DNA of 64,000 nt, taken from sequence record NC_048818.1. One strand, written 5' to 3'. Both the position numbers and the translations under genes were made by a program. Shown one piece after another: positions 2,042 to 30,836 of the stretch. How positions within the stretch are numbered: position 1 is the stretch's first letter; every line of letters starts with the position of its first letter. Source of the stretch: Escherichia phage VEc33. The notes beneath the pieces were generated by a model. That model saw nothing but the letters and a program-made list of their open reading frames with translations. It did no database searches and was not told the origin of the DNA.

Positions 2042-2070
2042 ATTATACTAAATTAGAGGGCTTTAAGCAA
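2042..2070 (-). promoter_or_regulatory. Sigma70-type promoter, minus strand (-35 TTGCTT, 17 bp, -10 TATAAT)
   Basis: Plus attata 2042-2047 and aagcaa 2065-2070. Confidence 0.6.
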
Positions 2071-2090
2071 GAAGATTTTTAATTTATTTA

Positions 2091-2567: not shown

Positions 2568-2848
2568 TATACCTCCCAACTAATTTTAAGACCCATGTCT
2601 ACAAAGGTGGCTTCTCGGTAGTATTGTGAGAGATGATACCCCTTATCCGATAAGGTTTTTAGTACCGATTTAGCTGCTCCTGGCATTTCTCTAGGATTAT
2701 ATAGCCACCTAGCGTAAGGATTATCTCGAATAATTACTTCTGTATTTCCAGACTTAGCAGCTTCTACAATCTTTTCTTCTATAAACTTTAGAAATGCGGG
2801 TACTTCTGTTAATCCTGCAAGTTCTTGGGCTTCTTTGGCTGAAATCAT
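2567..2848 (-). CDS. Hypothetical protein (93 aa)
   Basis: ORF track; TGGAGG SD and promoter upstream. Confidence 0.55.
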   Translation of the reverse strand: MISAKEAQELAGLTEVPAFLKFIEEKIVEAAKSGNTEVIIRDNPYARWLYNPREMPGAAKSVLKTLSDKGYHLSQYYREATFVDMGLKISWEV

Positions 2849-2873
2849 TGTATACCTCCAATTTATAAAATAT

Positions 2874-2902
2874 ATTATATTTAAATTTCACTAAATAAGC
2901 AA
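2874..2902 (-). promoter_or_regulatory. Sigma70-type promoter, minus strand (-35 TTGCTT, 17 bp, -10 TATAAT)
   Basis: Plus attata 2874-2879 and aagcaa 2897-2902; downstream region ATAAATTGGAGG resembles the family consensus. Confidence 0.6.
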
Positions 2903-2941
2903 ATGAAATTTAAATATAATAGCCCCGAAGGGCTATTTAAG

Positions 2942-3781
2942 TTAAGAGGACATTTTAGCTTTAAGAGCCGGATGCGGATCATATCCTTCAAGCTGGAAAG
3001 ACCAAGCTGCCGTATTATTTTCTAATAAATCGTAAAGATCTACAAACTCTGGCATTACTAGAGTAGGTAAAGCACGAGGTTTACGTTTTACCTGTTCTTC
3101 TACCTGTTCCATGTGGTCATTATAGATATGAGTATCACCACCACTAAAGATAAGATAACGAGGTTTTAATCCTGTCAGTTTTGCTAATATATGCGTTAAT
3201 AAAGCATAGCTAGCAATATTGAAAGGTAAACCGAGGAAACAATCCACCGAGCGTTGTGTCCATTTAAGATCTAGGTATCCATCGTTACTTACATAGCACT
3301 GGAAGCCATAGTGACAGGGTGGTAATGCCATTTTATCAAGTTCAGCTACATTCCATGCAGATACTAGGTGTCTACGACCATGTGGATTATTCTTGAGACC
3401 CTCAATGAGTTCTAGGATCTGATCTCGTCCACCAAAGTTGCGCCATTGTTTACCATATACTGGCCCTAGATTACCATTGTCATATCCCATACTTATGGCT
3501 TGGTCTTCATAATTTGGAGTCCAGATGGTCCACTGTCCTTCGTCACGCCCAAATGTGAATACTCGCAGATCATGGAGATTTGTAGATCCAGATAAAAACC
3601 ATAAGAGTTCTCCAACTACCGACTTCCAAGCTAGACGTTTAGTGGTTACAGCTGGGAATCCCTCACGTAGATCGAACTTAGCATAGGAATCAAAAATTGA
3701 AACTGTGCCTGTTCCTGTACGATCGTTACGTGGTTCACCTAGTAGAATTACATCTGTTAGAATTTTTAAATATTGTTGCAT
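2942..3781 (-). CDS. thyA: Thymidylate synthase
   Basis: Translated motifs RTGTGT, LPPCH (active-site Cys), DTHIY; 279 aa. Confidence 0.95.
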   Translation of the reverse strand: MQQYLKILTDVILLGEPRNDRTGTGTVSIFDSYAKFDLREGFPAVTTKRLAWKSVVGELLWFLSGSTNLHDLRVFTFGRDEGQWTIWTPNYEDQAISMGYDNGNLGPVYGKQWRNFGGRDQILELIEGLKNNPHGRRHLVSAWNVAELDKMALPPCHYGFQCYVSNDGYLDLKWTQRSVDCFLGLPFNIASYALLTHILAKLTGLKPRYLIFSGGDTHIYNDHMEQVEEQVKRKPRALPTLVMPEFVDLYDLLENNTAAWSFQLEGYDPHPALKAKMSS

Positions 3782-4314
3782 TAATAAGTAACCAATTCCT
3801 GTACAAATCGCAGGCTGTTATCACTGTTTGCGCCAACTGCATAGACTAATCGAGTGGATTCATAGTTATAATCCAGTATCATACTATCTAGGTGTATATC
3901 TGCCTCTAGCTTCTGCTCGCTAAAGATTGTAGATACAAAAGCACTTTCAATATGCCCATGTTGGTACATTTCTAGAAGAAGATTAGCTCCACCTAGAACT
4001 ACTGTTTGCTGATCTTTTAGAAAAGTAGGTAATGTATCACCTATCATTGATATGGGAGTGTAAATATCGTGTGTAATATCATCTGGCAGTGGACGATCAG
4101 CACGAATAAATAGGTCAGAAGCTCCAATCATACGTTCCCTAACGGCGTATGGAAGAGCTAAATAAGTACCTGCCCCAATAATAATATTATCAGGATTTAG
4201 TACATCTAATTGTGAATAAAAAGCATCTAGTTCTTCTTTAAAAGAACCCCAGGGAAGCTTACCTCGGAGGCCGAACTCCCCATTCGGCCCAACTGCATAC
4301 ATTGCTGTAATCAT
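3781..4314 (-). CDS. frd: Dihydrofolate reductase
   Basis: DHFR-like N-terminus (VGPNGEFGLRGKLPW), about 177 aa; translationally coupled to thyA and nrdB. Confidence 0.85.
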   Translation of the reverse strand: MITAMYAVGPNGEFGLRGKLPWGSFKEELDAFYSQLDVLNPDNIIIGAGTYLALPYAVRERMIGASDLFIRADRPLPDDITHDIYTPISMIGDTLPTFLKDQQTVVLGGANLLLEMYQHGHIESAFVSTIFSEQKLEADIHLDSMILDYNYESTRLVYAVGANSDNSLRFVQELVTY

Positions 4315-5456
4315 AGGAAATCTCCAAATTCATTGCCCAGATCTTTCAGAGTATCAGTAGAGGTCTCAGTTACCTGACCTACACGGTAAGCTGCACCAAT
4401 CTGGATTTCTTGTGGAGCAGGCTGTAGAGAAGTAGTATCCAACCAGTTCATGATCCACGGAATAGGGTTTTTGGTGATTACTGGTAAGTGACTAGGCCAT
4501 TCTACACCAATGTGTATAAATGCGTTACGTCCCACAAAGTACAAGTATTCTTCTAGAAGTTCTGCATTCAAACCAATCAGACTACGACCTTTGAAGATGA
4601 AATGACCCCATTCAATTTCAGTTTTCAGAGTTTTCAGGAGCTGTGCTGGTGCTTTAGCCACTGCTTCATCTACCAGATCTTTGTCAAACTGCTGGAACAT
4701 AATCTGGATGATTGTTTTAGACATCTGAGTATGTAGGGCTTCATCTTTAGCAATCAATTGCAGATTTTTAGCAATACCTTGCAGAATATCGTTCTCTGCT
4801 AACGCAAAGGTACATGCAAAGGATGCGTAGAACTGCATTGCTTCCAGACCGTAGATTGCAAAATAAGCATCTAACAGTTTAGCCTGAGTTTCACGCTTAA
4901 CTTCAGGGAACTCAGTTTCTGGATATGTATTGTCACCACGATGATCACGTACTGCAATGAAATACTGACCTAACTGGTACAGTTCATCAAACAGTTCAAC
5001 AGAATCTGCGATACGTGCAAATGCTTCTTGGTTTTTAGTTACAGAATCAATAAATTCTGCCGGATCAGTCAGCACATTACGGATAATGTTGCTATACGCA
5101 CGGCTATGCAGGTCTTCGAAGTAGCTCCACTGTTTTAGCATTCCTTCCAGTTCAGGGCGGCTTACAAGTGGCATAATAGCTGCTTCAGGCGCTCGACTGA
5201 TAAAGGAATCAGTTTGGGTCTGCCATGCTAAGTTCAGGAGTGTAATTTCCTGAATTTCACGTGGGAGGTTGGGCCATTGTTTCTTATCTGCTTCCAGACT
5301 GATTTCAGTTTCAGTCCAAAATTGAGAGCGTTGCAGAAGTGCCAGACGCTCTAATTCTGGATGGGCTACACGCACATAGTCTGCGATACCAAGAGAGTCT
5401 CCCAGGAAAAGATCAGCGTTAGTATGATCCCAGTTCAGGTTTAGTAAAGTAGTCAT
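4311..5456 (-). CDS. nrdB: Ribonucleotide reductase class Ia small (beta) subunit
   Basis: Ferritin-like di-iron/tyrosyl-radical signature regions (e.g. KDEALH), 381 aa, adjacent to nrdA. Confidence 0.9.
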   Translation of the reverse strand: MTTLLNLNWDHTNADLFLGDSLGIADYVRVAHPELERLALLQRSQFWTETEISLEADKKQWPNLPREIQEITLLNLAWQTQTDSFISRAPEAAIMPLVSRPELEGMLKQWSYFEDLHSRAYSNIIRNVLTDPAEFIDSVTKNQEAFARIADSVELFDELYQLGQYFIAVRDHRGDNTYPETEFPEVKRETQAKLLDAYFAIYGLEAMQFYASFACTFALAENDILQGIAKNLQLIAKDEALHTQMSKTIIQIMFQQFDKDLVDEAVAKAPAQLLKTLKTEIEWGHFIFKGRSLIGLNAELLEEYLYFVGRNAFIHIGVEWPSHLPVITKNPIPWIMNWLDTTSLQPAPQEIQIGAAYRVGQVTETSTDTLKDLGNEFGDFL

Positions 5457-5534
5457 TGATTTTCCTCTTTCTCACTATTTCAGGAATATTATAGCAAATC
5501 AGGTAGCGATTAGCAAGTAAAATTTCAAAGAAAA

Positions 5535-5554
5535 AGGAGACCCGAAGATCTCCT
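5535..5554 (-). terminator. Hairpin plus T-tract (minus strand) between nrdA and nrdB
   Basis: AGGAGA-loop-TCTCCT stem; on minus strand followed by TTTTTCTTTG. Confidence 0.45.
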
Positions 5555-5562
5555 TGTTTTTA

Positions 5563-7893
5563 TTATAACTGGCAACCACCAGAAGCACAACCCGCTGCTT
5601 CTTCTCCAGCCCCACCACCATTTGCAGTGTTGAAGTTTGCGTAGTACCAAGTTTTTATACCGTACTTAACAGCAGTCATGAAATCACGAACTACTACTGG
5701 GCCAGGGATGATTTCATTCTCGAATTTAGAGTAATCATAATACATCTGGAAACTTGATGACTGATTCAAGAATTTTTGGTAAACGGCGTTCCACTTGATC
5801 CACTCAGTGCGATCAATATCATAGGCCAGTTTATAGCTCATGAGAGTATCCCAATCGGTTGCACCTGGAGCAATTGCAATTACTTTATTCACTGCACTAC
5901 CTTTGATAGATACAATCTTACGAGGTGGCTCAATTGAGTTGGTAACACCCAATAGTACAGAAGAGCTTTCTCCCGGCATCTGCGCAGTCAGAACAGAGTT
6001 ACGCATACCGTATTTCAGAATATCTGCACGCAGAGATTCCCAGTCCATTTCTAGACCTACGGATACCAGTTCATCAACAGTTTTCTTGTACGTGTCGATT
6101 ACCAGAGTTCCTTTAGATGGTTTAGTACGATCGAACCATTCACATGCACCTTGCTCTTTGGCTAGACGTACAGAGGCTTTATGCAGGAAGTAAGACAGTT
6201 TTTCAGCCTCACGATGAATCCAGTTACGTGCTTCAACACCTTCGTAGGCCAAACCTTCCGCCGCCATTGCACCTGCTGCGTTCATCAGACCAATACCAAC
6301 ATTACGACGTTTCTTAGCCGTATATTCCATAGTTGGGAACGGATAATCCTGAATTTCAATGATGGTATCAACGAATTTCAGAAGAATATAGCAAGTCTTT
6401 TCCCACTCAGCCAGAGATTCCATGCGTCCTAGTACAACACCACCTAAGTTACACAGAGATACTTCCCCAATATCCTCCGGCTTCATTTGATCAAGTTGTT
6501 CTTTTGTTTTATACAGTTCCGTGATATGATGGAACGGGCGTGTAGGCTGAGTAATTTCAACACAAAGGTTTGTCATACGGATTGGATCAAGGAAGTTACC
6601 GTGACGATTAGATTCCCCGATGTGGTGTGCATACATACGTCCTGTTTCCATTCGGATACGTAGCCAAGTATCTAGGATTTCTTTTGCTGAGACTTTAGGA
6701 GCTGCTGGAACTGTTTTTCCTTCGTGGTCGATCTTTGTAAGAGATGCCACACGTTTCTCCGCTGCCACATAGATTTCTTCAAATTTAGCCTCGTCATCAC
6801 TATAAAACGCTTCATGAACTTCTGGAGCATAGAAGTATGACATTAGCGTAATATCTTCATTTTTCAGATAACGTTTTAACAAAAGATTGTTGAAGCTCAG
6901 AGAATAATCCATCTTATCGATTTTATTCTCATCTGTAGCACGTTGTTGCTTAACCTGCATCAATTGAATGATTTCAGGGTCAAAGTATGGATAAGACACT
7001 GTAGCAGAACCACCACGAGTTTGCTGAGTATTGGCCTTTACTGAGCGGTCAATGTGTCGATAATATGGCAGTTTTCCGGAATGCGGGAATGCCCCATTTC
7101 GCACCGGATCAGCAATTGATCGGCTTTCAAGATGATACCCGATTCCAGCTCTGGCTGCGACCATTTTGAAGACGATGTGCTCGGCTGTGTCGATTGAATC
7201 CAACGTGTCAGTGGAATCCACGAGGCAGCAACTAGCAAATCCACGGTCACTAGAACGCAAACCAACCAGTGGCGGCGTAGGAACGTTGATTTTGTGGAGC
7301 GACATTGCATTGTAGAGATCGATTGCATCTAGAATTGTCCAGTTGGGTTGAGATAACATCGCCATTGCCATGCCCATATAGGCAAATTGCGGGGTTTCGT
7401 AAATTTCGCCAGTTGCGATATTACGACGAGAATACTTATCAAAGAATTGTTTCAATCCTCCGCTAGTGAAAAGACGGTCGCGATCATGGTCGATAACCTG
7501 ATTCAGAGCTTCAAATTGCTCATCGGTAATCCATGCACTCATGTCTTCCCATGCACCTACACTAACCATATGATCGTGGAAAAAGCGCAGAGAAGGTGGT
7601 TCGAAGGAATCATAAAGGCGTTTACGCATTTGCGCAAGACGTAATTCCTTTGCTGGCACGTCGTATGCTGGATTATCTTTGATAAGACTTTCAGCAGCCT
7701 TAATTAAAGCATCCATCAGAGTGTCGGAATCTACAATCCCCTTAGGTAGAGTTTTTTGAGCAGCCATAGTAATGGCTGACCAACTTACATCAACTGTTTT
7801 GCAACCATACTCTGCCCAACCATTGAGTTTTTCAGGAGCAAAGTCTTCTACAGTACCGTCACGTTTAATTACTTTTTCGATGCGATGGCTCAT
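5563..7893 (-). CDS. nrdA: Ribonucleotide reductase class Ia large (alpha) subunit
   Basis: N-terminal ATP cone (RIEKVIKRDGTVEDF), C-terminal CASGGCQL Cys pair. Start set at ATG 7893 with AGGAAAAC SD; the ORF-track start at 7998 adds an unlikely 35 aa extension. Confidence 0.93.
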   Translation of the reverse strand: MSHRIEKVIKRDGTVEDFAPEKLNGWAEYGCKTVDVSWSAITMAAQKTLPKGIVDSDTLMDALIKAAESLIKDNPAYDVPAKELRLAQMRKRLYDSFEPPSLRFFHDHMVSVGAWEDMSAWITDEQFEALNQVIDHDRDRLFTSGGLKQFFDKYSRRNIATGEIYETPQFAYMGMAMAMLSQPNWTILDAIDLYNAMSLHKINVPTPPLVGLRSSDRGFASCCLVDSTDTLDSIDTAEHIVFKMVAARAGIGYHLESRSIADPVRNGAFPHSGKLPYYRHIDRSVKANTQQTRGGSATVSYPYFDPEIIQLMQVKQQRATDENKIDKMDYSLSFNNLLLKRYLKNEDITLMSYFYAPEVHEAFYSDDEAKFEEIYVAAEKRVASLTKIDHEGKTVPAAPKVSAKEILDTWLRIRMETGRMYAHHIGESNRHGNFLDPIRMTNLCVEITQPTRPFHHITELYKTKEQLDQMKPEDIGEVSLCNLGGVVLGRMESLAEWEKTCYILLKFVDTIIEIQDYPFPTMEYTAKKRRNVGIGLMNAAGAMAAEGLAYEGVEARNWIHREAEKLSYFLHKASVRLAKEQGACEWFDRTKPSKGTLVIDTYKKTVDELVSVGLEMDWESLRADILKYGMRNSVLTAQMPGESSSVLLGVTNSIEPPRKIVSIKGSAVNKVIAIAPGATDWDTLMSYKLAYDIDRTEWIKWNAVYQKFLNQSSSFQMYYDYSKFENEIIPGPVVVRDFMTAVKYGIKTWYYANFNTANGGGAGEEAAGCASGGCQL

Positions 7894-8236
7894 TTGGTTT
7901 TCCTTTTTATAGTTATCAGGATTTAGGAAATAGTTTACTTTATTCTCAGTCATTTGGCAAATAAAATTTTCTGATAGAAAAGGCCCGAGTATTTTCATAC
8001 CCAGGCCTTCTGTGTTGTCAGTCTAGTTTTTGGCCACTTAAGTTCTCAGCAGAATATCTATTGAGGTACTTAGTTCATTATAATTGAAGGGCCGATTTGG
8101 ATTTGAGGTTACAATTTTCCACGCTAGGGTAGTCTTAGGACTATCTTCCCCTTCCTTACGTGTAATCATATTAGCAGCACTCAGTGAAGTACGATGTATT
8201 TTTGTTTTACGGTGTAGATGTACGACGTTTCCCATA

Positions 8237-8998
8237 TTACACCTTCCCCATGTCTTTAAAAATATCGTAGAATGCTTTAGACTCAGCAGAACGAACGTTA
8301 TCAATCAATTCGATCATTGAGAATGGAGCATTTTCATATTTCTCATAAACTTCCATAAGAAGAGCTAGACCTGAGTCACCTTTAATATCTTTCTGAGCTA
8401 TATCTCCGCAGATAATTAAACGGCAGTCTTGTCCTACACGAGTTAGGAGACAAACCATTGCCTCAACGGAAATATTCTGAGCTTCATCGACAATTACATA
8501 GGAGTTGTTGAAAGTTCTGCCACGAGCATGTTCTATAGCCAAAAATTTAATTTTCTGACGTTCGACATATCCCTTATAGGCATGATCACCGATGGCCCAT
8601 TTCATACCATCAGCTATTGGCTCCAACCAAGGCTCTAGCTTTTCTGCTAGATCACCAGGAAGCATACCAAGAGACTTACCTAGAGGTTCATTAGGACGTA
8701 CGAGGATCACTTGCTCAATATCTGAGTGAATGTCTACGAGTTCCTGAGCTGCAAGAACAGACGGGATAAAGGTTTTACCTGTACCTGGCTCACCGATACC
8801 CACAGTCACTGTGTTGTTCTTGATCATATTGATATATGATTTTTGCTCTCGGTTTTTACCTACTAGGGATTTAGCAACTGGGTTAGCGTAATCATTAGAA
8901 AAATCAGCCTGAATTACGTTATTCTCATATTTGTTGCCACGCTTTCTTGAACCATTGCGGTTCTCTCTTTTTTGACGTGCTTTTCCCATAAATAACAC
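8237..8998 (-). CDS. phoH: PhoH-like ATPase
   Basis: Walker A GEPGTGKT, Walker B VIVDEAQN, typical PhoH length (253 aa). Confidence 0.88.
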   Translation of the reverse strand: MLFMGKARQKRENRNGSRKRGNKYENNVIQADFSNDYANPVAKSLVGKNREQKSYINMIKNNTVTVGIGEPGTGKTFIPSVLAAQELVDIHSDIEQVILVRPNEPLGKSLGMLPGDLAEKLEPWLEPIADGMKWAIGDHAYKGYVERQKIKFLAIEHARGRTFNNSYVIVDEAQNISVEAMVCLLTRVGQDCRLIICGDIAQKDIKGDSGLALLMEVYEKYENAPFSMIELIDNVRSAESKAFYDIFKDMGKV

Positions 8999-9062
8999 TC
9001 CTATAGTGTACTTCGCTAACAGAGGATCAACAAAAAGATCTTGTTTATCAACTTACAAATAT

Positions 9063-9091
9063 ATTATACCAGTATATGCAGTAAAAAGCAA
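9063..9091 (-). promoter_or_regulatory. Sigma70-type promoter, minus strand, for phoH (-35 TTGCTT, 17 bp, -10 TATAAT)
   Basis: Plus attata 9063-9068 and aagcaa 9086-9091; divergent from the nrdD promoter. Confidence 0.6.
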
Positions 9092-9301
9092 CTACAATTT
9101 TAAATAAGCCTATGATATTGCATTTAAATAAAAAATTTGCTTGCTTTTAACTGGAAATGTATGGTATTAGATAATCATTTTATACCGCGTACATAGGCGC
9201 GTGATTATACTATTTTAAGTACAAAATAGCAAATAAATTTTTTAACAATTTGCTAACTTTTTAGCACAGATCAAAATACAATATCTAAGAGAAAAATTAT
9301 A

Positions 9302-9330
9302 TTGACATTTGCCCTTGAATAAGCTATAAT
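9302..9330 (+). promoter_or_regulatory. Consensus sigma70 promoter (TTGACA, 17 bp, TATAAT) for nrdD
   Basis: TTGACA 9302-9307, TATAAT 9325-9330, then AAAAGGAGGG SD and ATG at 9360. Confidence 0.75.
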
Positions 9331-11276: not shown

Positions 11277-11305
11277 TTGCTTTCAGCCAAAAATTTATAT
11301 ATAAT
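11277..11305 (+). promoter_or_regulatory. T5-type early promoter (TTGCTT, 17 bp, TATAAT, downstream AGATTTATAAATTTGAGAGGAG)
   Basis: TTGCTT 11277-11282, TATAAT 11300-11305; SD then ATG 11334. Confidence 0.7.
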
Positions 11306-11333
11306 AGATTTATAAATTTGAGAGGAGAAAGCT

Positions 11334-11624
11334 ATGAGCGAGTTGCTTCCTAAAGTAGATGTCTCCCATCTTGGGGAGCCTAGTGAAGAACGTAAGGCTC
11401 TAGATTGGTTGGGTGGATTTGATTATCGTCGTGTTGTTGCAACATGGAATGATAAGAATGATAAGAAAGTTAAGAAGTTTCGGGTACATTATGTAGGTAA
11501 AGACAAGTGGCTCTGGATTGATTATGAAGAATCAAAGGGGTCTACTAAGGCTGTGAAAATTTATTGTATGTATGGGTATTATTATGCTCACTGTGATAAG
11601 AATGAATTTACAGTACAGAACTAA
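11334..11624 (+). CDS. Hypothetical protein (96 aa)
   Basis: ORF track; strong promoter and SD GAGAGGAGA upstream. Confidence 0.6.
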   Translation: MSELLPKVDVSHLGEPSEERKALDWLGGFDYRRVVATWNDKNDKKVKKFRVHYVGKDKWLWIDYEESKGSTKAVKIYCMYGYYYAHCDKNEFTVQN

Positions 11625-11633
11625 GGAACAAGA

Positions 11634-11837
11634 ATGAAAAACGTAAAACATCTTAAATATCGCTTAATTTACAACGGACGTATGGAAACAGAAGATCTGG
11701 CCCAATTAGCTATTACTTCTAATGAGGTTACGGTGCGTGCTCTGGCAATTGAAAAGTTGCGTGCCTCTTATGAAAATCGTGTTATGGAACTGGAGGAGAA
11801 ACTTTATGGACTTCTTGAATCAGAATCTAAAAAGTAA
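11634..11837 (+). CDS. Hypothetical protein (67 aa)
   Basis: ORF track; AGGAACAAGA upstream. Confidence 0.5.
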   Translation: MKNVKHLKYRLIYNGRMETEDLAQLAITSNEVTVRALAIEKLRASYENRVMELEEKLYGLLESESKK

Positions 11838-14422: not shown

Positions 14423-14451
14423 TTGCAGGATGCCCAAAATCTTGATATAAT
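14423..14451 (+). promoter_or_regulatory. Sigma70-type promoter (TTGCAG, 17 bp, TATAAT) opening into a ~500 bp ORF-free region
   Basis: TTGCAG 14423-14428, TATAAT 14446-14451; no SD-supported ORF until GTG 14951. Confidence 0.55.
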
Positions 14452-14950
14452 ATTTATATTGAATTGAGAGACATTAGTAAAAATTGATTTTGCTAATTTT
14501 TCTTGTTTACAATCCGCGATACGGAACAGTTAGGCTGCCCCATTAAGGGTTGTTTTAACTGTTACGTGTTAGTTTTTAAACAAATAGTTAATAGAATACT
14601 TAGCGATCTGCGTCCCGTAGGAACCCTGGTAAGGCCTCGAAGCAACCTAGATAGAGGTGGTTGTGAAGTGAGACGGGAGGAGTGAAAAACTCCGAGACGT
14701 GATTCTGTAAGTTATATTGCATCTAGTATGAGCTAGTATATGAAGCATTAGGTGAGCAAATCTGGCTTAGCGGCCATCCTCAAGGATTTGTGCGGTATAG
14801 CAAAGCAGCAGCGCAGCGTGAAAGTGGAAGTTGCCACCCCACTTCAGTATTTGCGATTAATTTGTTGAGAAATTGACAGTAACAGTTGTTCTATTCTTTC
14901 TGAATAGTCCTAAAGAAAACTTATTTCATTTCCAACACAGGAGTATTGTT

Positions 14951-17740
14951 GTGTTTTCAATCCTACAAGGTCATGCAGGATTTCATCGCGATTTAGCCAC
15001 AGGCAATTGGCGAGAAGTTAAAGCAGAAGATTATCTTTTTGCTAAAAGATTTTCCTCAAAGCATCCTGAAGGTAAACCAGCTTCAATGCCCTTCAAGTTT
15101 GATGTAATTGACGAAGTTGATCCTCAAACCCTAGTAGAAATGCTTCCCATTATGAGACGTTTAACGTCTGACCCTCATATCGTTGCGGTACGAGGTCGAT
15201 GTCTTGCACCTAAAAATAATGTGCGGCGTAAGAAGGGCAACTTTAATGTATCTAACCCAAGTCATATAATCGCAATGGATGTGGATGGTATTGTAGATAC
15301 AGGTGGTTGTAACAAGTTTGATCTTGTTGGCATGGCTCGACATATTATTAGAATGTTAAATAGTATTAGTGAGGATATGTTCCCTCTTGATGCAGGGTTT
15401 ATCGCTCATGCATCATCTTCGGCTGGGCTAAAACCAGGTATCCGAATGCACTTAATACTAGAATCTAATGTTAAAGTAACTCAGGGTCAAATCAAATTCT
15501 TATTTACATCTATCAACGAAAGTAGTAGACAAAAGTATGGCTTTGATATTGCCGACCTAGCTTATTACTCTTCCGTACAGCTTCATTATTTTGCAGATCC
15601 GTTATTTATCGATGGTATAGTAGATCCGTTTAAAGCGGAGGGTGCTTCACGTCTGGTATTTGTTAAGGGTTCTAAAGTAAATTTACCCAATAATCTGGTT
15701 GACTATGAAACAACTAGAGGAGAGTTTAAAGAGGAGTTCTACTCCTTACTCGATCAAATTAAAGGTAAAAAGGCTGCCTCTGATAAAGTAGAAGAAACCA
15801 TCAGCGAGTTAGAAGAAGCCGAGGATGGAGTGTATCTACGTATTATTCCTAAACTCTATCACAGAGCTTTAGAGGATGGTGTTGATTTTGCATGGCTAGA
15901 AAAAGAAATCCGCCCAGCCTTATCAGAATATATTGCAACTAAAGATAATAGTCGTAATATTCAAGACTACTTTAATAACGGTCGTAAACAGGCTCTGAAA
16001 GCGTTTGTTAATAATTCTAAACGCGATATACCTGATGTTTTAAAAGGTATTCCACTTAAAAAGCTAGAAACTAATTCTCTAGAAACTGATAACTTCTTGA
16101 AATTAAACACTGTACCACCAGAAGGTTATATGACTTTTGTAAAAGCAAGTCTAGGTACAGGTAAAACCACGGCAGTTGTGCGTTGGTTAGATTCAGGGGT
16201 TATTAAAGGTAATTTCTTAGCAATTACCAATACTAGAGCACTGGTATCTTCAAATGCTAAGAAATTTAGTGCAGGACAGTATGATAAGTCTGTAGATATG
16301 CTTAATTTTAAGCGTGGTGCTATTGACCGTATGTCCACAACTATTCACTCTTTGCATAAATTCAAGAGTTTTATTGGTCAAATTGACGCAATCTTTATCG
16401 ATGAATGTGATGCAGTAATGAATGACCTATTATTCGCCCCGGTTGTTAAGCAACGTCGAGAGTGTATTCAGGTTCTTCGGGATATTCTTGCAACTGCAAA
16501 AATCATTATATTATCTGATGGGGATATTAGTGCAGAAACAATTGAAGCATATGGTTCTTTGATTGAGTTTGATAAACCGGTTGCATTTTATAATCATCAC
16601 CGTAAAATGCTATCAAAAGCTCATGCTTATGAGTTTCCTGATGAATCCAGTATTTGGGTTGCACTTCAGACTTCCCTGGAGATGGGTGAGAAATCTATCC
16701 TAGTATCTGACTGTGGGCCAGATGAACTGAATGAGAAGGGCATGGCGTTGCGTCGTAATACGGGTGCGTTAGTTAAGGAAATCCATTCAAATTCTACGTC
16801 TGATGTGGATATTAGACGTATCCTGGATTACACAACTAATGAGTTAATTGACCAACAAATTGATTGCTTATTATGTAGTCCATCCGTAACGAGTGGTGTT
16901 GACTTCAACTATTTTGATAACGTATTCGTTATTACTAGAACCTCAAACCAAGCGCCAAACATGCGTTTCCAAGCAATCAGGCGCGACCGTGGTGCTCAGA
17001 ATATCTATTATTTTATTGATAAATCCACTAGTGGATTCTCCGCAGGTTCTGAACAATATAATATTGATGAAGGTTGGCTGGAGTTAGCACAGCAATTATA
17101 TGCACGTCGCAGAGAGCTGGAATCTAGGAACTATACTAGTACTTTACGTTATTACTTGCTTGATCAGGGTGCAACTATTGATATTTTCAGCGAAAGCTGG
17201 GGAACTATTGAAGGTGCTGGTAAAGAGTACACAGAAGAGCGAATCAAAGCTATACTGTATTCAACTCCTGATTATTGTGCTCCACGCCATGCAGATGCGT
17301 ATGAAGCTAAACTACTTCTTGTTCGCTATTATCATCTTGAGTCTATTAAAGATGTAACAGTTGAGCATGTTGAACAATATATCAAGGATAAACCTAATGA
17401 TCGAGCGGCATTCTTCCATAAAATGCACGAGATGTTTTGGGAAGATATTAAGAAGTGTTCAAATGTCACTATCAAACCATTCATAGAAGCTCTGAAAGGT
17501 AAGAAGAAAGATTTCTTCCTTAAAACAGGTCAGAGTGCTAACCCAAAATATGCGAGAATGTATCTTGGTATGATGGGTATTGGTAAGGATATGAACACTG
17601 AAAATATTGTAGACTGGTACAGAACCTATTGTAAAATCGAGTGTATGCCAATCCCGTATAAGTTTATGACTGATGAGGAGAAACATATGCATGATGAAGC
17701 AATGGCAGAGCTAGGTGCTAGAAATGACAGTGAAGAATAA
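14951..17740 (+). CDS. Large replication-associated protein with P-loop NTPase/helicase-like domain
   Basis: GTG start 14951 with AGGAG SD 7 nt upstream (ORF-track TTG at 14873 lacks SD). Walker A ASLGTGKTT, Walker B IFIDECD; ~400 aa N-terminal region unassigned. Confidence 0.7.
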   Translation: MFSILQGHAGFHRDLATGNWREVKAEDYLFAKRFSSKHPEGKPASMPFKFDVIDEVDPQTLVEMLPIMRRLTSDPHIVAVRGRCLAPKNNVRRKKGNFNVSNPSHIIAMDVDGIVDTGGCNKFDLVGMARHIIRMLNSISEDMFPLDAGFIAHASSSAGLKPGIRMHLILESNVKVTQGQIKFLFTSINESSRQKYGFDIADLAYYSSVQLHYFADPLFIDGIVDPFKAEGASRLVFVKGSKVNLPNNLVDYETTRGEFKEEFYSLLDQIKGKKAASDKVEETISELEEAEDGVYLRIIPKLYHRALEDGVDFAWLEKEIRPALSEYIATKDNSRNIQDYFNNGRKQALKAFVNNSKRDIPDVLKGIPLKKLETNSLETDNFLKLNTVPPEGYMTFVKASLGTGKTTAVVRWLDSGVIKGNFLAITNTRALVSSNAKKFSAGQYDKSVDMLNFKRGAIDRMSTTIHSLHKFKSFIGQIDAIFIDECDAVMNDLLFAPVVKQRRECIQVLRDILATAKIIILSDGDISAETIEAYGSLIEFDKPVAFYNHHRKMLSKAHAYEFPDESSIWVALQTSLEMGEKSILVSDCGPDELNEKGMALRRNTGALVKEIHSNSTSDVDIRRILDYTTNELIDQQIDCLLCSPSVTSGVDFNYFDNVFVITRTSNQAPNMRFQAIRRDRGAQNIYYFIDKSTSGFSAGSEQYNIDEGWLELAQQLYARRRELESRNYTSTLRYYLLDQGATIDIFSESWGTIEGAGKEYTEERIKAILYSTPDYCAPRHADAYEAKLLLVRYYHLESIKDVTVEHVEQYIKDKPNDRAAFFHKMHEMFWEDIKKCSNVTIKPFIEALKGKKKDFFLKTGQSANPKYARMYLGMMGIGKDMNTENIVDWYRTYCKIECMPIPYKFMTDEEKHMHDEAMAELGARNDSEE

Positions 17741-17957
17741 AAAATGGGAAACAAGGAAGTTCCCAGTAAAAGAGCGTAAAGTTCCTGTTTACGATACTTC
17801 GGAAAAGCTATGTAGGGTGGTACCGCACAGACTAGCTGGCATCCCTAACATATCCGAGTGGTTACTTAAACAACGGAGGACTAACGTATCTCTTCGCATA
17901 GGGTTTGAATTAGATAAAGTATATGCTGAACTTTCTTCTTTGCTCAAGGAATCGTAA
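17724..17957 (+). CDS. Hypothetical small protein overlapping 3' end of upstream gene
   Basis: ATG 17724 (or GTG 17715) in a different frame from the large gene; weak support. Confidence 0.3.
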   Translation: MTVKNKKWETRKFPVKERKVPVYDTSEKLCRVVPHRLAGIPNISEWLLKQRRTNVSLRIGFELDKVYAELSSLLKES

Positions 17958-17965
17958 AAATTTAT

Positions 17966-17994
17966 TTGCTTTCAGGAAAATTTTTCTGTATAAT
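17966..17994 (+). promoter_or_regulatory. T5 early promoter, PN25-like (TTGCTT, 17 bp, TATAAT, AGATTCATAAATTTGAGAGAGAGGAG)
   Basis: TTGCTT 17966-17971, TATAAT 17989-17994; sequence matches from memory the classical T5 PN25 promoter. Confidence 0.8.
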
Positions 17995-18027
17995 AGATTC
18001 ATAAATTTGAGAGAGAGGAGTTTAAAT

Positions 18028-18732
18028 ATGGCTGGTTCTCGCAGAAAGAAACATATCCATGAAATCCCGGATGAAGTCTTTAAAAAAGTTATAGAGCATC
18101 TGGAGAACGGTGGTACTAAGAAAGCAGCATGTGAAATGCTTGGCGTATCATCCAACCCAACTATGGAAAGGATGATAGAAGAGTGGCAAGATCGCCAAAT
18201 TCAAGTTGCCGAGATGAAGAAAAAGAAACGTGGCACACTCATTGAAGGCATTGAGTTAGCTAACGTTATTGAGCAGTATTTATCTGGTGATTCTTTTGAA
18301 GAAATTGCCGATCGTAATTACCGCTCTGTAGCAATGGTTAAATCTGTTCTGGAACGATATGGTGCTCTACTTCGTTTGAACGATATTGTAGATCCATTGA
18401 ATCCTCCAATTATTCCTGATGATGCTGTAGCAGAAGAATTTGCAGTTGGTGAGCTTGTTTGGGTTCCTGGGTACCAGTGTATCGGTGAAATCAAAAAAGC
18501 AATGGATAACCCTGTTGGTTGTTACCGTGTATGGCTTCTATCAGAAGGCAAACAACAGAACGTTCATTATATGAATTATGAGTTGGCTTCTGTAAAGCAT
18601 TTGGAAAAGCTAGGAGTAGACGTAAAATCTCTGGGGTATAAATGGACTCGGGAAGAAGTCATTACGTTGATTAACGAAGCTGTTAAGGCCGCCTTGAAAC
18701 TTGATAAAGAAAAAGGAAAACGCCGTGAGTAG
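18028..18732 (+). CDS. Putative HTH DNA-binding/regulatory protein
   Basis: ATG 18028 right after the promoter and SD; HTH-like segment GGTKKAACEMLGVSSNPTMERMIEEW. ORF-track start 17923 lies upstream of the promoter. Confidence 0.6.
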   Translation: MAGSRRKKHIHEIPDEVFKKVIEHLENGGTKKAACEMLGVSSNPTMERMIEEWQDRQIQVAEMKKKKRGTLIEGIELANVIEQYLSGDSFEEIADRNYRSVAMVKSVLERYGALLRLNDIVDPLNPPIIPDDAVAEEFAVGELVWVPGYQCIGEIKKAMDNPVGCYRVWLLSEGKQQNVHYMNYELASVKHLEKLGVDVKSLGYKWTREEVITLINEAVKAALKLDKEKGKRRE

Positions 18733-18993: not shown

Positions 18994-19022
18994 TTGCTTA
19001 ATCCTACAATTCTTGATATAAT
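18994..19022 (+). promoter_or_regulatory. Sigma70-type promoter (TTGCTT, 17 bp, TATAAT)
   Basis: TTGCTT 18994-18999, TATAAT 19017-19022; AAGGAAA SD before ATG 19080. Confidence 0.6.
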
Positions 19023-20210: not shown

Positions 20211-20239
20211 TTGCTTTCAACTCAGTTTTGTTATATAAT
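20211..20239 (+). promoter_or_regulatory. T5-type early promoter (TTGCTT, 17 bp, TATAAT)
   Basis: TTGCTT 20211-20216, TATAAT 20234-20239; downstream ATTTATATAAATTAATGAGAGGA. Confidence 0.7.
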
Positions 20240-20268
20240 ATTTATATAAATTAATGAGAGGATTAATC

Positions 20269-20469
20269 ATGGCAATGACAGTAACACTTCCCAAGATTCA
20301 AGCAAAACTTAATCTACTTTCCACAGCACGCATTAATTATCAGGATAACATAGGCACAGTAAATCAAAAGGTGTACAAAGATGCGTTTCTGAAAGAATCT
20401 GCTGATTTGATGGATATGGTTACACAATATAATAAAGAACTCAAGATGGAAATCGCCGATGATGAATAA
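20269..20469 (+). CDS. Hypothetical small protein (66 aa)
   Basis: ATG 20269 with GAGAGGA SD; ORF-track start 20254 is in frame but lies inside the SD. Confidence 0.5.
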   Translation: MAMTVTLPKIQAKLNLLSTARINYQDNIGTVNQKVYKDAFLKESADLMDMVTQYNKELKMEIADDE

Positions 20470-21483: not shown

Positions 21484-21512
21484 TTGACATTTTCGCCGCT
21501 TAGGTATATACT
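21484..21512 (+). promoter_or_regulatory. Sigma70-type promoter (TTGACA, 17 bp, TATACT) inside the ligA/ligB spacer
   Basis: TTGACA 21484-21489, TATACT 21507-21512. Confidence 0.55.
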
Positions 21513-21576: not shown

Positions 21577-21605
21577 TTGCTAAATGCTTAAATACTTGCT
21601 ATAAT
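21577..21605 (+). promoter_or_regulatory. T5-type promoter (TTGCTA, 17 bp, TATAAT) upstream of ligB
   Basis: TTGCTA 21577-21582, TATAAT 21600-21605, then ATTTATATAAATTGATAAGGAAG and ATG 21636. Confidence 0.65.
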
Positions 21606-21635
21606 ATTTATATAAATTGATAAGGAAGAAATTTG

Positions 21636-23257: not shown

Positions 23258-24730
23258 ATGACCTTGTTTAACGTGCAAGCTGTAGTGTTGAAGATGCTTC
23301 TAGCTTCCGAACAGAAGCAAATAGCATTGGAAACATTCTCAAAACTGCATAAAGATCATTTTAATGACGCTTTCTCCTCAATTTACCAAGCCGTCCAGAA
23401 TTATTATAAAAAATATAACACAATGCCGTCCATTGACGCACTTATGCTTGAAGCTAATAGGAACGCCCGCCTTTCTCAAGCTCTAGTCGTCTTAGCTAAC
23501 ACTCAAATTCCAGAAGTGAGCATGGAACAGGCACTTGAAGTCCTAGAAGCCGAATATACACAGGATTTATTCCTGAAGCTTCTAGAAACAGACGTGCTTC
23601 AAGATTTAACAATGCTGGATCAGGGAGAAATTCTCAACCGAGTTGCCTCCCTTCACTTAAAATTAGAAGAGAAAGTAACGAATACTGGAAAAGTATTCAA
23701 CGCAGATAACATGCGTATTTTCCAGAGAGAAGAAGATACCAAACTGAACTTAATCGCTCTTGGTATTTGTAATGAGTTCGACGCTCAAATCGGTTTAGCT
23801 CGCACAGAAACGTTACTGCTTGGTGGTTGGCGTGGTACTGGTAAATCCATTATCTGTTCAAACATACAGGTTCAGCAATATTTGAATGGGGATATTGCTC
23901 CATACTTCTCAATTGAGATGAAAGAACATGAAGTATTTAGACGTAATCTAGCCATGTTAGCTGGTGTATCGGCATTAGCAATGCGTAATAATACTCTAGA
24001 AGGTGCAGCTCTGTTGAGATTAGCCAGAACTAGAGCTAGAATGTTTAATGGTGGTGAAGAGCTTTTCGACAACTTCGTTAAACAGTACACAATGGCTAAG
24101 ATGAGTGATTTCTACGATATGGAGAGTAAGCTAATAGAGGGATATGAACTACATACTCCTATGATTATCGTTTATGACCCTGAACTGTCCATTACAACAG
24201 TTGACGTAGAATTAAATAAATTAGTTGCTAGATATGGGGATAAAGTTACAGTAGCTTTACTGGACTATATTAACCAAACCCGACTTCCAGACTCTAAAAC
24301 CATTGATATGTATGACTGGAAAGAACAGATGGTTGTTAGCTCGTCTTTCAAATCTATCTGCCAGAAACATAACGTGGCTGGTGTAGCTCCTTACCAGATT
24401 GATCAAGATGGTAGAACACGTATGTCAAAGGGGATTCTTGATTCCGCAGACATGGCTGCTAATCTTAATGCTGCAAAAGCTGATAATGGTCAAGGTGCTA
24501 TTATGTTTGACTTCGTTAAGACTCGTTCTTCTGATAGCGTGAAGTTTATGCCTAAAATGAACTGGGAAACCCTGCGGATGGATAACACTACCAACCTAGC
24601 AATGGAAGATATATCTCAAATGGAAGCTGAGTTCGTTATCCCTATTGAGAAGGATAAGCCGGCTCAATCTAAACGTGCTAAGAAAGACAAAGCTGAAAAT
24701 TCAACAGGTGAACAGGCCAGCGATATATGA
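23258..24730 (+). CDS. DnaB-like replicative helicase
   Basis: ATG 23258 with AAAGGAGA SD (ORF-track start 23207 is inside the terminator loop). RecA-fold motifs GGWRGTGKS and FSIEM. Confidence 0.75.
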   Translation: MTLFNVQAVVLKMLLASEQKQIALETFSKLHKDHFNDAFSSIYQAVQNYYKKYNTMPSIDALMLEANRNARLSQALVVLANTQIPEVSMEQALEVLEAEYTQDLFLKLLETDVLQDLTMLDQGEILNRVASLHLKLEEKVTNTGKVFNADNMRIFQREEDTKLNLIALGICNEFDAQIGLARTETLLLGGWRGTGKSIICSNIQVQQYLNGDIAPYFSIEMKEHEVFRRNLAMLAGVSALAMRNNTLEGAALLRLARTRARMFNGGEELFDNFVKQYTMAKMSDFYDMESKLIEGYELHTPMIIVYDPELSITTVDVELNKLVARYGDKVTVALLDYINQTRLPDSKTIDMYDWKEQMVVSSSFKSICQKHNVAGVAPYQIDQDGRTRMSKGILDSADMAANLNAAKADNGQGAIMFDFVKTRSSDSVKFMPKMNWETLRMDNTTNLAMEDISQMEAEFVIPIEKDKPAQSKRAKKDKAENSTGEQASDI

Positions 24731-25260
24731 TAACACAGGAAAGGCTAAAAGAGTTATTTGATTACTCCCCAGAAACTGGGGAGTTTACTAGAAAAGTATC
24801 TAGAGGTAATCAGAAAGCTGGTAGTATAATAACCAGAAAAGACTCTAACGGTTATATAATTATTGGTATAGATGGCAAGGATTACAAAGCCCATCGGATG
24901 GCTTTTCTATTTATGGAAAATACATTGCCGAAAAAAGTAGACCATGTAAACAGAATACCTTTTGATAATAGGTGGTGTAATCTAAGAGACGCCACAGCTC
25001 AGGAAAATAGTAGAAATAAAACCGCATGTAGTAAGTCTGGATATTTGGGAGTTGCTTGGGATATCGAAAAACAAAGATGGAGAGTTCAAGTAAGAGACTC
25101 TAATAGCACTCTTAAAAATGGTGGCAGATTTAAGCATGAAGAGCTAGAGCTAGCTGTAAATTCAGCAAATATATTAAGGACTAAGTTACATGGAGAACGT
25201 GCTGTTATAGAAATTTTTGATACATCTAATTATCCTTCACTGGAGGAGTTAAATTCATGA
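24727..25260 (+). CDS. HNH-family homing endonuclease-like protein with AP2-like DNA-binding region
   Basis: HNH-like region KAHRMAFLFMENTLPKKVDHVNRIPFDNRWCNLRDATAQEN, AP2-like YLGVAWDIEKQRWRVQV; paralog of 63453-63950. Confidence 0.7.
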   Translation: MITQERLKELFDYSPETGEFTRKVSRGNQKAGSIITRKDSNGYIIIGIDGKDYKAHRMAFLFMENTLPKKVDHVNRIPFDNRWCNLRDATAQENSRNKTACSKSGYLGVAWDIEKQRWRVQVRDSNSTLKNGGRFKHEELELAVNSANILRTKLHGERAVIEIFDTSNYPSLEELNS

Positions 25261-26147
25261 GTCGAATAACAGAATTACTTGATCTTAAGGGAATTGAGTA
25301 TAAAGATACTGGTGGAGATATTTTAATCTGTTGTCTCAATCCAGATCATGACGATAAACACCCGAGTTTGCGTATTGACCCTGAAACAGGTATTATGCAC
25401 TGCTTGAGTTGTGGCTTCGGTAAAGGTATACCGAGCATTTACCATTATTTTAATGAGACCCAGTACCGACAGTCCCCAAGGCTATCACAAGTACGTAAAA
25501 AAATTTCTGAGATTAGAAATGGATCTACGAATCTTGCAATCCCAGAATCTGCCTTTCTTTTTGAAGGTGATTTCCGAGGTATCAGTTCTAAGACCTTGAA
25601 GAAATATTTTGCTTTCCAACATCAAGAGAACTGGGAAGGCAGAATTGTATTCCCAATCACAGATGCTGTTGGACGCAATATCCTATTTTTGGGTCGTTCT
25701 ATAAACAGTTCTGCCCCTCCTAAATACTTAGTAAAACCAAAACAAGTTTCACCACCGATTTTCCCTGTACGATATAATACTCCAGTTCTTGTTCTAGTTG
25801 AAGGTATCTTTGATATGCTGAACCTAGAGGATAATGGTATAGACTATGCTTCTTGCTGCTTTGGTACACATCAGTTTACCTCGGATAACATTGCAGATAA
25901 GTTCAGTCCTTATATTATTGCTGGTGTTAAAGTTGTTGTTATCTTACTAGATAATGATGCTTCTGGTAATAAGGCCGCACAAGCATTGGCCAAGTTAATT
26001 CGTACAAAAACGCGTTTAACACCTGTAGTTGCTAATTTTCTTCTGCCTGAAGGTAAAGACCCGGGTGACTTAAATAAAGAAGAGATCGATATGTTAGCAA
26101 AACGTATTGAAATTTTAGTTGCTGAATCGCTTAAAGATTTGGTATAA
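25257..26147 (+). CDS. DNA primase (DnaG-like zinc finger plus TOPRIM)
   Basis: Zn-binding CCLNPDHDDKHPS...HCLSCG, TOPRIM-like VLVEGIFD and LLDNDASG. Confidence 0.8.
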   Translation: MSRITELLDLKGIEYKDTGGDILICCLNPDHDDKHPSLRIDPETGIMHCLSCGFGKGIPSIYHYFNETQYRQSPRLSQVRKKISEIRNGSTNLAIPESAFLFEGDFRGISSKTLKKYFAFQHQENWEGRIVFPITDAVGRNILFLGRSINSSAPPKYLVKPKQVSPPIFPVRYNTPVLVLVEGIFDMLNLEDNGIDYASCCFGTHQFTSDNIADKFSPYIIAGVKVVVILLDNDASGNKAAQALAKLIRTKTRLTPVVANFLLPEGKDPGDLNKEEIDMLAKRIEILVAESLKDLV

Positions 26148-26148
26148 T
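26119..26148 (+). promoter_or_regulatory. Sigma70-type promoter with extended -10 (TTGCTG, 18 bp, TGgTATAAT)
   Basis: Lies in the last codons of the primase gene, upstream of the polymerase SD AGAGGAGA. Confidence 0.5.
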
Positions 26149-29267: not shown

Positions 29268-30616
29268 AGGTTGTTATATCTAATAAAGCCTATTTCAAGC
29301 CCGATGATGAACTTTGGGATTATTGTAGTAAGCAAACCACTTATCACATAGAGACAATGACTAGTAAATACCCTATTATGTATAAGAATAGTGGTGTTGT
29401 TGCCAAAGAGATTAAGTGGATTCCTATTACGCGTCTGGACTTACTGGATGCCAAAGGAGTAAAATACGAATTAGTCGATAAACGCACATTAGCACCGGTA
29501 GATATACCAAAACCGTCGTTTAAACTGCGTGAAGAAGATCAGCTTCCAATATACGAAGAATGCGATGATACCTGTATTATTAATGGTAAGCCTGGATTTG
29601 GTAAAACTATCCTAGCTCTTGCACTTGCGTATAAATTTGGCCAGAAAACTTTGGTAATCTGTACGAATACATCCATCCGTGAAATGTGGGCGGCAGAAGT
29701 TCGTAAATGGTTTGGGTTTGAACCAGGTATCATAGGTTCTGGAAAGTACAATATTGATCCACCAATTGTAGTCAGTAATATTCAAACAGTGAATAAACAT
29801 GCGAATAATCTTTCTAAAGTATTCGGTACTGTTATAGTTGATGAAGTTCACCATTGTGTGGCTACAACTTTCACTAATTTCCTAGAAATATCATGTGCTC
29901 GCTATAAAATTGGACTATCCGGTACACTAAAACGAAAAGATGGTCTACAAGTTATGTTCAAAGACTTCTTTGGATATAAGATCTTTAGCCCACCGGTTAA
30001 TAATACTGTTGCACCTACAATCCATAGGTACTCCGTGCCTGTTGAGCTATCAGGAAACCAAAACGTACCGTGGGCATTACGTGCTAACGATGTGTATAAC
30101 CATCCTGAATATCGAGAGACTATTATAAACCTAGCACATTTATATGTGAATATGGGGCATAAAGTACTCATTGTAAGTGATAGAACAGAGTTAATCCAAA
30201 CAGTACTAGAAGCTCTTGCACAGCGTGGTGTTACAACATATGAAATTATAGGGGCGACCCACTTAGATGACCGATTAAAAATTCAGGAAGATATAGCAAA
30301 AGGTGGACCTTGTGTACTTGCAGCAGCTCAAAGTATATTCTCTGAAGGTATTTCTCTTAATGAGTTGTCTTGTTTAATAATGGGAAGCCTCATTAATAAT
30401 GAATCTCTCATTGAACAGCTTGCAGGACGTGTTCAACGTATTGTCGATGGTAAACTCGATCCTATTGTTGTAGATCTAATTATGAAAGGTGGCACTGGAC
30501 TAAGACAGGCTTCTGGACGTATGGCAGTATATCGTAACAATGGGTGGAAAACTATTACCATGACTCCGGAGAAAGCAGTTCAATTAGCTAAAATTGCATT
30601 TGGCAACAGCTCATAA
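29264..30616 (+). CDS. Superfamily 2 DNA helicase (T5 D10-like)
   Basis: Walker A GKPGFGKT, DEVH box VIVDEVHH, C-terminal helicase motifs; 450 aa. Confidence 0.85.
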   Translation: MKVVISNKAYFKPDDELWDYCSKQTTYHIETMTSKYPIMYKNSGVVAKEIKWIPITRLDLLDAKGVKYELVDKRTLAPVDIPKPSFKLREEDQLPIYEECDDTCIINGKPGFGKTILALALAYKFGQKTLVICTNTSIREMWAAEVRKWFGFEPGIIGSGKYNIDPPIVVSNIQTVNKHANNLSKVFGTVIVDEVHHCVATTFTNFLEISCARYKIGLSGTLKRKDGLQVMFKDFFGYKIFSPPVNNTVAPTIHRYSVPVELSGNQNVPWALRANDVYNHPEYRETIINLAHLYVNMGHKVLIVSDRTELIQTVLEALAQRGVTTYEIIGATHLDDRLKIQEDIAKGGPCVLAAAQSIFSEGISLNELSCLIMGSLINNESLIEQLAGRVQRIVDGKLDPIVVDLIMKGGTGLRQASGRMAVYRNNGWKTITMTPEKAVQLAKIAFGNSS

Positions 30617-30628
30617 ATGATGTATAAT
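30600..30628 (+). promoter_or_regulatory. Sigma70-type promoter (TTGGCA, 17 bp, TATAAT), first of a tandem pair
   Basis: TTGGCA 30600-30605, TATAAT 30623-30628, downstream ATATACATAAATTTGAGAGAG. Confidence 0.6.
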
Positions 30629-30699
30629 ATATACATAAATTTGAGAGAGAAAGTTTCGGATTGATAAGGAAGTCCGAAGCAGAAAAATAAAAATTTTAG

Positions 30700-30729
30700 T
30701 TGCTAAATTCTCTCGAAATCTAGTATAAT
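30700..30729 (+). promoter_or_regulatory. Sigma70-type promoter (TTGCTA, 18 bp, TATAAT), second of a tandem pair
   Basis: TTGCTA 30700-30705, TATAAT 30724-30729, downstream ATATACATAAATTCGAGGAG. Confidence 0.6.
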
Positions 30730-30836
30730 ATATACATAAATTCGAGGAGAAAACAAAAATTAAATTCTTCGATTATGAAAAGCTATACTTACTAGCTAGA
30801 GGAAATTCCGACCTAATTATTAAGCTATTCAAAAGA

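Follow-up and report, generated by a model that had tools for sequence, protein, structure and literature searches.

The 64,000-nt stretch of Escherichia phage VEc33 analysed here, hereafter the window, carries at 17,966–17,994 on the plus strand a promoter lying upstream of gene D2, which the initial annotation had likened to the classical T5 promoter PN25. That comparison was accurate, the site being identical to the T5 feature "promoter P-N 25" over 60 consecutive bases, from an A-tract (17,955–17,962) to about +15. The discriminator is AGATTC, the initial transcribed ATAAATT occupies 18,001–18,007, and the D2 ATG is at 18,029; positions +1 to +15, starting at 18,001, are thus the native N25 form of the initial transcribed sequence. 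When 17,941–18,035 is aligned with T5 63,037–63,129, the sole difference past +15 is a short purine indel ahead of ATGGCTGG (GAGAGAGAGGAG against GAGAGAGGAG). PN25 is the basis of widely used expression vectors and a standard model of abortive initiation and promoter escape, and T5 promoters in general have featured in textbooks as strong promoters since the 1980s.

When 2 kb of sequence around the 17,966 site served as query, 442 phage records matched, almost all from T5-like phages whose hosts are Escherichia, Salmonella, Citrobacter, and Shigella; identity was 95.4–97.7% in the best matches. By blastn, window positions 7–36,787 are collinear with T5 (AY543070) 44,606–81,679 at 87–96% identity, and the alignment persists, more weakly, beyond 36,787 into the tail genes. 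On these alignments, the window, with a general identity to T5 of 93–97%, is taken to cover the early region, together with some of the late region, of a Tequintavirus that is near T5 and distinct from it. About 2.5 kb immediately 3' of the early-region terminator (36,787–39,320) has no T5 homology, and identity to T5 over 39,320–43,553 is just 74%. Together these segments make up the tail-fibre region, which in T5 contains the gene for the L-shaped tail fibre, and the receptor-binding apparatus therefore probably differs. The set of HNH endonuclease genes is also unlike that of T5 (window 24,727–25,260 (+), 5481–5486, and 17,720–17,727): a hegJ-like ORF (24,727–25,260 (+)) between the helicase and primase genes is absent from phages FFH1, vaffelhjerte, and rutana, and the T5 genes hegH (524 nt) and hegI (495 nt) are absent from the window.

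The promoter family and its T5 counterparts

Seventeen promoters of this type had been listed in the initial annotation, and all 17 were found when their coordinates were read one by one. The exact pattern TTGCTW-N17-TATAAT occurs 12 times in the window, against 0.07 expected from dinucleotide-preserving shuffles of the same DNA, and none of 100 shuffles reached 12. Relaxing the pattern to TTGNNN-N17/18-TATAAT (TATACT at 21,484) recovers every listed site, and altogether 19 sites fit TTGNNN-17/18-TATAAT or TATACT. A position matrix derived from these 19 sites and run over both strands returned the same 19 at ≥14 bits (17–41 bits) and nothing else; their high scores are a matter of construction, and the informative part is the absence of any further position at or above 14 bits. 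Two of the 19, at 5488–5516 (−) and 9204–9232 (−), had been overlooked, as had a further site at 52,766–52,794 (−), the counterpart of T5 PJ5, which brings the total to 20. A generic sigma-70 consensus scan of the window gave 57 sites compared with 56.3 expected by shuffles, i.e., no enrichment, and the signal is therefore specific to the T5-type pattern; most family members are inconspicuous in such a scan because TTGCTT scores only 4/6 against TTGACA.

The core had been described as TTGCTT or TTGCTA, a spacer of exactly 17 bp, and a perfect TATAAT in most members. This stands for the 12 exact copies, but the spacers at 26,119 (TTGCTG-18-TATAAT) and 30,700 are 18 bp, so that their true spans are 26,119–26,148 and 30,700–30,729, and several listed sites have variant hexamers: TTGACA-17-TATACT at 21,484, TTGACA-17-TATAAT at 9302, TTGATA-17-TATAAT at 45,596, TTGGCA at 30,600, and TTGCAG-17-TATAAT at 14,423. 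Calling the copies near-identical was too strong, as their mean pairwise identity over −46 to +14 is 53% (maximum 80%; random pairs from the window, 26%). Similarity between copies is concentrated in the functional elements, and the spacers are unrelated. Across the 19 sites, information content peaks at −45 to −40, −35 to −32, −12 to −6, +2, +7, and +9 to +13. An upstream A-tract that had gone unmentioned is conserved at −45 to −40, with A at −45 to −42 in 15–18 of the 19 sites and T at −40 in 17 of them; this is followed by TTGC at −35 to −32, TATAATA at −12 to −6 (A at −6 in 18 of 19), and T or G at −5. Downstream, T is preferred at +2 and +7, A at +4 and +5, and G at +9, with purines continuing to +13. 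The spacer also has a feature of its own: C is present at −25 in 14 of 19 members (e.g., window position 17,976), often as ..GC.. 4–5 bases past the −35 hexamer (TTGCTAAAYGCT), in a spacer that is otherwise AT-rich. The same tendency is seen in the Klebsiella and Providencia phages discussed below, and no description of this preference was found in the T5-type promoter literature examined.

The T5 record (AY543070) contains 75-nt "regulatory/promoter" features, several of them with classical names, and these were searched against the window. At 86–100% identity, 19 of the 20 window sites match a T5 promoter feature, the exception being 62,320; among the 19 members comprising the 17 listed sites and the two missed, the figure is 18, and the assignment to T5-type promoters is borne out. 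Each matching feature falls on the expected window site. Those T5 features that lack names seem to have been predicted from sequence and not mapped as transcript starts. The counterparts of PN25, PN26, PK28a/b, PH207, P31A/B, Ppol, PG25, and PJ5, promoters described by Gentz and Bujard in 1985 (as cited in PMC7472727), lie at the same positions with 94–100% identity over 75–101-nt features, with the same genes downstream, the same order of elements, and a few substitutions. Three T5 features, 81,735 (+), 110,349 (+, llp), and 110,375 (−, oad), had no match in the window.

Several members have a conserved segment, here called the box (ATAAATT), downstream of the −10 hexamer. On the minus strand are the counterparts of P-H207 (1691–1719, TTGCTA-17-TATAAT, box at 1677–1683, 97% identity to the T5 feature), T5 46,337–46,411 (2042–2070, TTGCTT-17-TATAAT, without an exact box, 100%), T5 46,937–47,011 (2874–2902, box at 2860–2866, 86%), T5 50,061–50,135 upstream of nrdB (5488–5516, 100% over the 51 nt aligned), T5 53,638–53,712 upstream of phoH (9063–9091, 97%), and T5 53,776–53,850 (9204–9232, without a box, 97%), together with those of the late-class promoters PG25 (45,596–45,624, without an early-type box, 94%) and PJ5 (52,766–52,794, TTGACA-17-TATACT, 99%). 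The plus strand carries the nrdD promoter (9302–9330, without a box, 97%) and the counterparts of T5 55,708–55,782 (11,277–11,305, box at 11,312–11,318, 95%) and T5 58,999–59,073 (14,423–14,451, 97%), followed by those of PN25, of PN26 upstream of D3 (18,994–19,022, 100%), and of T5 65,284–65,358, the ligA promoter (20,211–20,239, box at 20,246–20,252, 100%, after which comes a 202-nt insertion with a small ORF). To their right lie the counterparts of PK28b (21,484–21,512, 100%), PK28a upstream of ligB (21,577–21,605, box at 21,612–21,618, 100%), T5 70,987–71,061 upstream of the DNA polymerase gene (26,119–26,148, 100%), P31A within the 3' end of the D10 helicase gene (30,600–30,628, box at 30,635–30,641, 100%), and P31B (30,700–30,729, box at 30,736–30,742, 100%). 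The 26,119 site is presumably the Ppol early promoter, equated through the T5 feature just upstream of pol. The remaining site (62,320–62,348 (+), box at 62,355–62,361) lies upstream of a lipoprotein-like gene; its −10, discriminator, and box are identical to those of PN25 (TATAATAGATTCATAAATT). It showed no sequence match to the T5 llp-promoter feature (110,349–110,423) in the search of the window, and is assigned to the llp promoter by position alone.

Every site is oriented with its downstream genes. Minus-strand members occupy 1691–9232 and plus-strand members 9302–30,729, diverging from the phoH/nrdD junction in agreement with ORF orientation, an arrangement that fits two divergent early transcription units meeting at that junction. 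There, the nrdD promoter is a 12/12 match to the sigma-70 consensus without the early-type discriminator and initial transcribed box, and it opposes the two leftward promoters at 9063 and 9204 across a divergent control region of ~250 bp.

Two of the leaders deserve separate mention. The 14,423 promoter is separated from the gene for the replication-origin-binding protein by ~490 nt of apparently non-coding leader (14,452–14,950); T5 has the same gap (59,073–59,545), relative to which the window leader holds a more diverged patch of 262 nt (14,616–14,878). A repeat search in this leader past 14,451 gave nothing convincing, and an Rfam scan of the whole window returned no family at the gathering threshold, so none of the promoter leaders corresponds to a curated RNA family. 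At the PG25 counterpart, the leader (45,556–45,595 (−)) reads AAGAGGAGAAATTAACTATGAGA, which we take to be the "RBSII" ribosome-binding site of the pDS/pQE expression vectors.

The segment downstream of the −10 hexamer

The initial annotation had also reported that many copies share a segment after the −10 hexamer, and this segment is real: TATAAT-N5–7-ATAAATT occurs nine times against 0.07 expected, and a stricter 19-mer pattern seven times against 0.01. In relaxed form, the box is found in 11 of the 19 members, always 6–7 nt past the −10; eight have no clear box, which is thus not obligatory for family membership. Across the family the first plausible start codon lies 25 to >140 nt past the −10. 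In published N25 numbering, TATAATAGATTCAT spans −12 to +2 (PMC7472727), which places ATAAATT at +1 to +7. As its offset from the −10 is fixed whatever the distance to the start codon, the conserved segment represents a discriminator (−6 to −1) plus initial transcribed sequence, and is part of the promoter. Of the two natures originally proposed for the box, a shared initial transcribed element is therefore upheld, but an UP-like element is not. The place of an UP element is 5' of the −35 hexamer, at about −38 to −59, a location that excludes the box and includes the separate A-tract, which at −45 to −40 sits in the place of the proximal subsite of rrnB P1-type UP elements.

The GAGAG that follows the box had been read as a Shine–Dalgarno (SD) sequence. 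This holds at 11,277, 17,966, 20,211, and 62,320, but apparently not in general, as GAGAG or GAAAG is also found at +9 to +13 of the 14,423, 18,994, 30,600, and 30,700 promoters, where there is no start codon at SD distance (5–10 nt). Its retention where the start codon is 57 to >140 nt away (18,994, 30,600, and 30,700) suggests that GAGAG is not simply an SD sequence.

The same architecture, box included, is present at 17 sites in a 50-kb stretch of Klebsiella phage AmPh_EK80 (Sugarlandvirus); Providencia phage PSTCR5 (Priunavirus) has 16 sites, six of them with the box, and in two Epseptimavirus genomes the box accompanies 7–8 of 18 sites. The segment past the −10 common to these groups is A(G/T)(A/T)T(T/A)(C/T)ATAAATT. 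Between the window and the Klebsiella phage, the PN25/D2 and PK28a/ligB promoters are nearly identical in discriminator and initial transcribed sequence, compared with ~40–65% identity in their spacers. Over six position-matched pairs compared without gaps, the excess is small (0.62–0.64 for discriminator and initial transcribed sequence versus 0.54 for the spacer), but one-base indels blur such ungapped scores and some pairings are uncertain, e.g., that of the Klebsiella 39,495 site. The latter (39,495–39,523) is placed like the ligA promoter and, as at the window 20,211 site, comes behind the same terminator-like sequence, yet it has a PN26-type downstream sequence (ATTCTCATAGTTTGAA), which hints that downstream-sequence types may have been exchanged between promoter sites.

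Probable transcription by the host RNA polymerase

We consider it highly probable that these sites direct sigma-70-dependent transcription of a T5-like phage (Tequintavirus) by the host RNA polymerase in its unmodified form. T5 genes of every class are transcribed by the host sigma-70 holoenzyme, and primer extension in vivo has assigned Ppol to the early class and PJ5 and PG25 to the late class (Klimuk et al. 2020, PMC7472727). Recognition by the holoenzyme, which has been published for the T5 counterparts (PMC7472727, PMC12464699), would by analogy extend to the present phage. For N25 itself, the elements are TTGctt, a 17-bp AT-rich spacer, and TATAAT, with an UP element and a 6-bp discriminator in which G at −5 contacts sigma region 1.2; polymerase binding is so strong that escape becomes the limiting step. 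Escape is fastest with the native initial transcribed sequence, and an anti-sequence variant yields ~10-fold less full-length RNA (PMC12464699).

The promoter family described above, with its downstream segment, is already known. The promoters are annotated in the T5 record, and the 32 promoters of phage AKFV33 were given the consensus TTGCTw, a 17–18 bp spacer, and TATAATA, with AAAAATT at −43 and TAAATT at +1 (Niu et al. 2012, PMC3326045). That consensus, including the AT-rich blocks at −43 and +1, equals the one found here, the 32 promoters referring to a whole genome and our 19–20 to 64 kb. The early-class discriminator was described by Klimuk et al. (PMC7472727), and the N25 initial transcribed sequence has been studied in the Hsu laboratory (PMC12464699). 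Since the family and its downstream segment had thus been published, the observation is real but ordinary. The biochemistry of the initial transcribed sequence (Kammerer 1986, as cited; Hsu and Han 2025, PMC12464699) is for N25 only; conservation of this element across the family is an observation made on sequences.

From the published work on N25, we infer how the conserved unit, ~−47 to +15, would operate. Its A-tract at −45 to −40 lies where the alpha C-terminal domain would contact a proximal UP subsite; the core consists of a TTGCTW −35 hexamer, a spacer of 17 bp (sometimes 18) that is AT-rich toward the −10, and a perfect −10 plus one base, TATAATA; and downstream are a 6–7 nt discriminator, A(T/G)(A/T)T(T/A)(C/T), and the AT-rich/purine-rich ATAAATT(T/G)GAGAG. 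The A-tract, −35, and perfect −10 would together confer very fast and tight polymerase binding, which in turn would make promoter escape rate-limiting, and the native AT/purine-rich initial transcribed sequence (ATAAATTTGAGAG) would then reduce abortive cycling and speed escape. The early-class discriminator probably sets the properties of the open complex and is, we hypothesize, a candidate cis-feature dividing early from late promoters. The box may have a second role, in translation of the very short leaders or in temporal switching.

Temporal switching could go further than this. The early discriminator and box might together be the cis-target of phage regulators, such as the polymerase-bound gpT5.026 or the D5 DNA-binding protein, through which early transcription is shut off at the onset of late expression; we regard this as a tentative possibility. 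The box occurs in early-region members and is missing in the counterparts of the late promoters PG25 and PJ5, which fits the published picture of early and late discriminators: according to Klimuk et al. (PMC7472727), it is chiefly by the discriminator that early promoters are told from late ones, the known early T5 promoters all sharing ATATT, which sets them apart. The same source reports that gpT5.026 reduces the affinity of polymerase for the −5/+2 non-template segment of N25 ~8-fold, and that early transcripts are increased ~5-fold in a gpT5.026 amber mutant. However, several members of the early region (2042, 5488, 9063, 9204, and 9302) have no box.

Alternatively, the box could work mainly as RNA, either as an A/U-rich 5' leader that enhances translation by binding ribosomal protein S1 or as a stability element of early mRNA. 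Of the 11 members with a box, 8 have their start codon ~20–30 nt further on, and a very short leader abuts a GAGG/GGAG SD sequence, as would be expected for such a function. Nevertheless, the distance of the box is fixed to the −10 and not to the start codon, it is present where leaders are long, and the ~10-fold effect of the N25 anti-sequence is exerted at the level of transcription (PMC12464699). A principal role in RNA is thus rather unlikely, but functions of the box at the RNA and transcription levels are compatible and not mutually exclusive.

Gene gain and loss at promoter edges

Against T5, FFH1, vaffelhjerte, and rutana, the early region shows 31 gene-sized insertions or deletions. 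In 16 of these events, representing about 8 of 18 distinct loci, a boundary lies no more than 50 nt from the +1 of a family promoter, and the boundaries fall in two narrow bands, −47 to −43 and 0 to +25; these edges delimit the conserved unit as ~−47 to +15. The indels concerned (window 2570–2866, 5481–5486, 11,322–11,637, 17,955, 20,260–20,462, and 30,588) are mostly HNH homing-endonuclease genes or small ORFs. HNH genes are inserted directly 3' of the −10 at the 5488 promoter in T5 and vaffelhjerte, and directly ahead of the A-tract at the 5488 promoter in FFH1, at PN25 in rutana, and at P31A in both vaffelhjerte and rutana. The promoters at 2874, 11,277, and 20,211 are followed by differing small ORFs among the relatives, and four promoters (2874, 5488, 11,277, and 20,211) have a different gene directly after them than in T5. 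Because homology ends at +10 to +25 where the downstream genes of relatives differ, the box stays with the promoter.

T4-type phages likewise have many strong early promoters that resemble one another, carry AT-rich upstream blocks, and border variable small genes, and for these phages recombination at promoter–stem-loop cassettes has been proposed; T4 early promoters have a different consensus and need Alt-modified polymerase. By the same token, similarity within the present family might merely reflect recently duplicated or recombining mobile promoter cassettes rather than functional constraint on each position. In addition to the indel ends at cassette edges, a T5 feature at 44,393, elsewhere in that genome, is 97% identical over 29 nt to the −10-to-box segment of the window PN25. 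However, the unrelated spacers, the restriction of the 53% mean identity to known functional elements, and the maintenance of one consensus across four genera led us to reject recent duplication as improbable. The clustering of edges is itself only a weak enrichment over baseline, as gene-sized indels must fall at intergenic junctions and about one-third of these carry a promoter, and it is explained equally well by purifying selection for intact promoters. Chance matches in a genome of 61% A+T, where generic promoter-like hexamer pairs indeed occur at shuffle level, have a negligible probability and were rejected, given that TTGCTW-N17-TATAAT and the box are enriched more than 100-fold, their counts being equalled in none of 100 shuffles, and that the sites are co-oriented with downstream genes and match T5 features.

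Strong sigma-70 promoters conserved for their function remain our preferred reading. A further conjecture, compatible with the present evidence but doubtful, is that the ~−47 to +15 units may serve as preferred seams for gain and loss of HNH genes and small ORFs in the Demerecviridae, perhaps via recombination between paralogous cassettes, and/or that the box may be the cis-signal for early shut-off by gpT5.026 or D5.

For the phage itself, the promoter map anchors annotation of the window, both of its transcription units and of their divergence point at ~9250–9300. Gene swaps that end at about +10 to +25 constitute a natural "deletion series", an argument for assigning the box to the promoter and not to the downstream gene, and the discriminator and initial transcribed box have been kept across at least four genera of the Demerecviridae.
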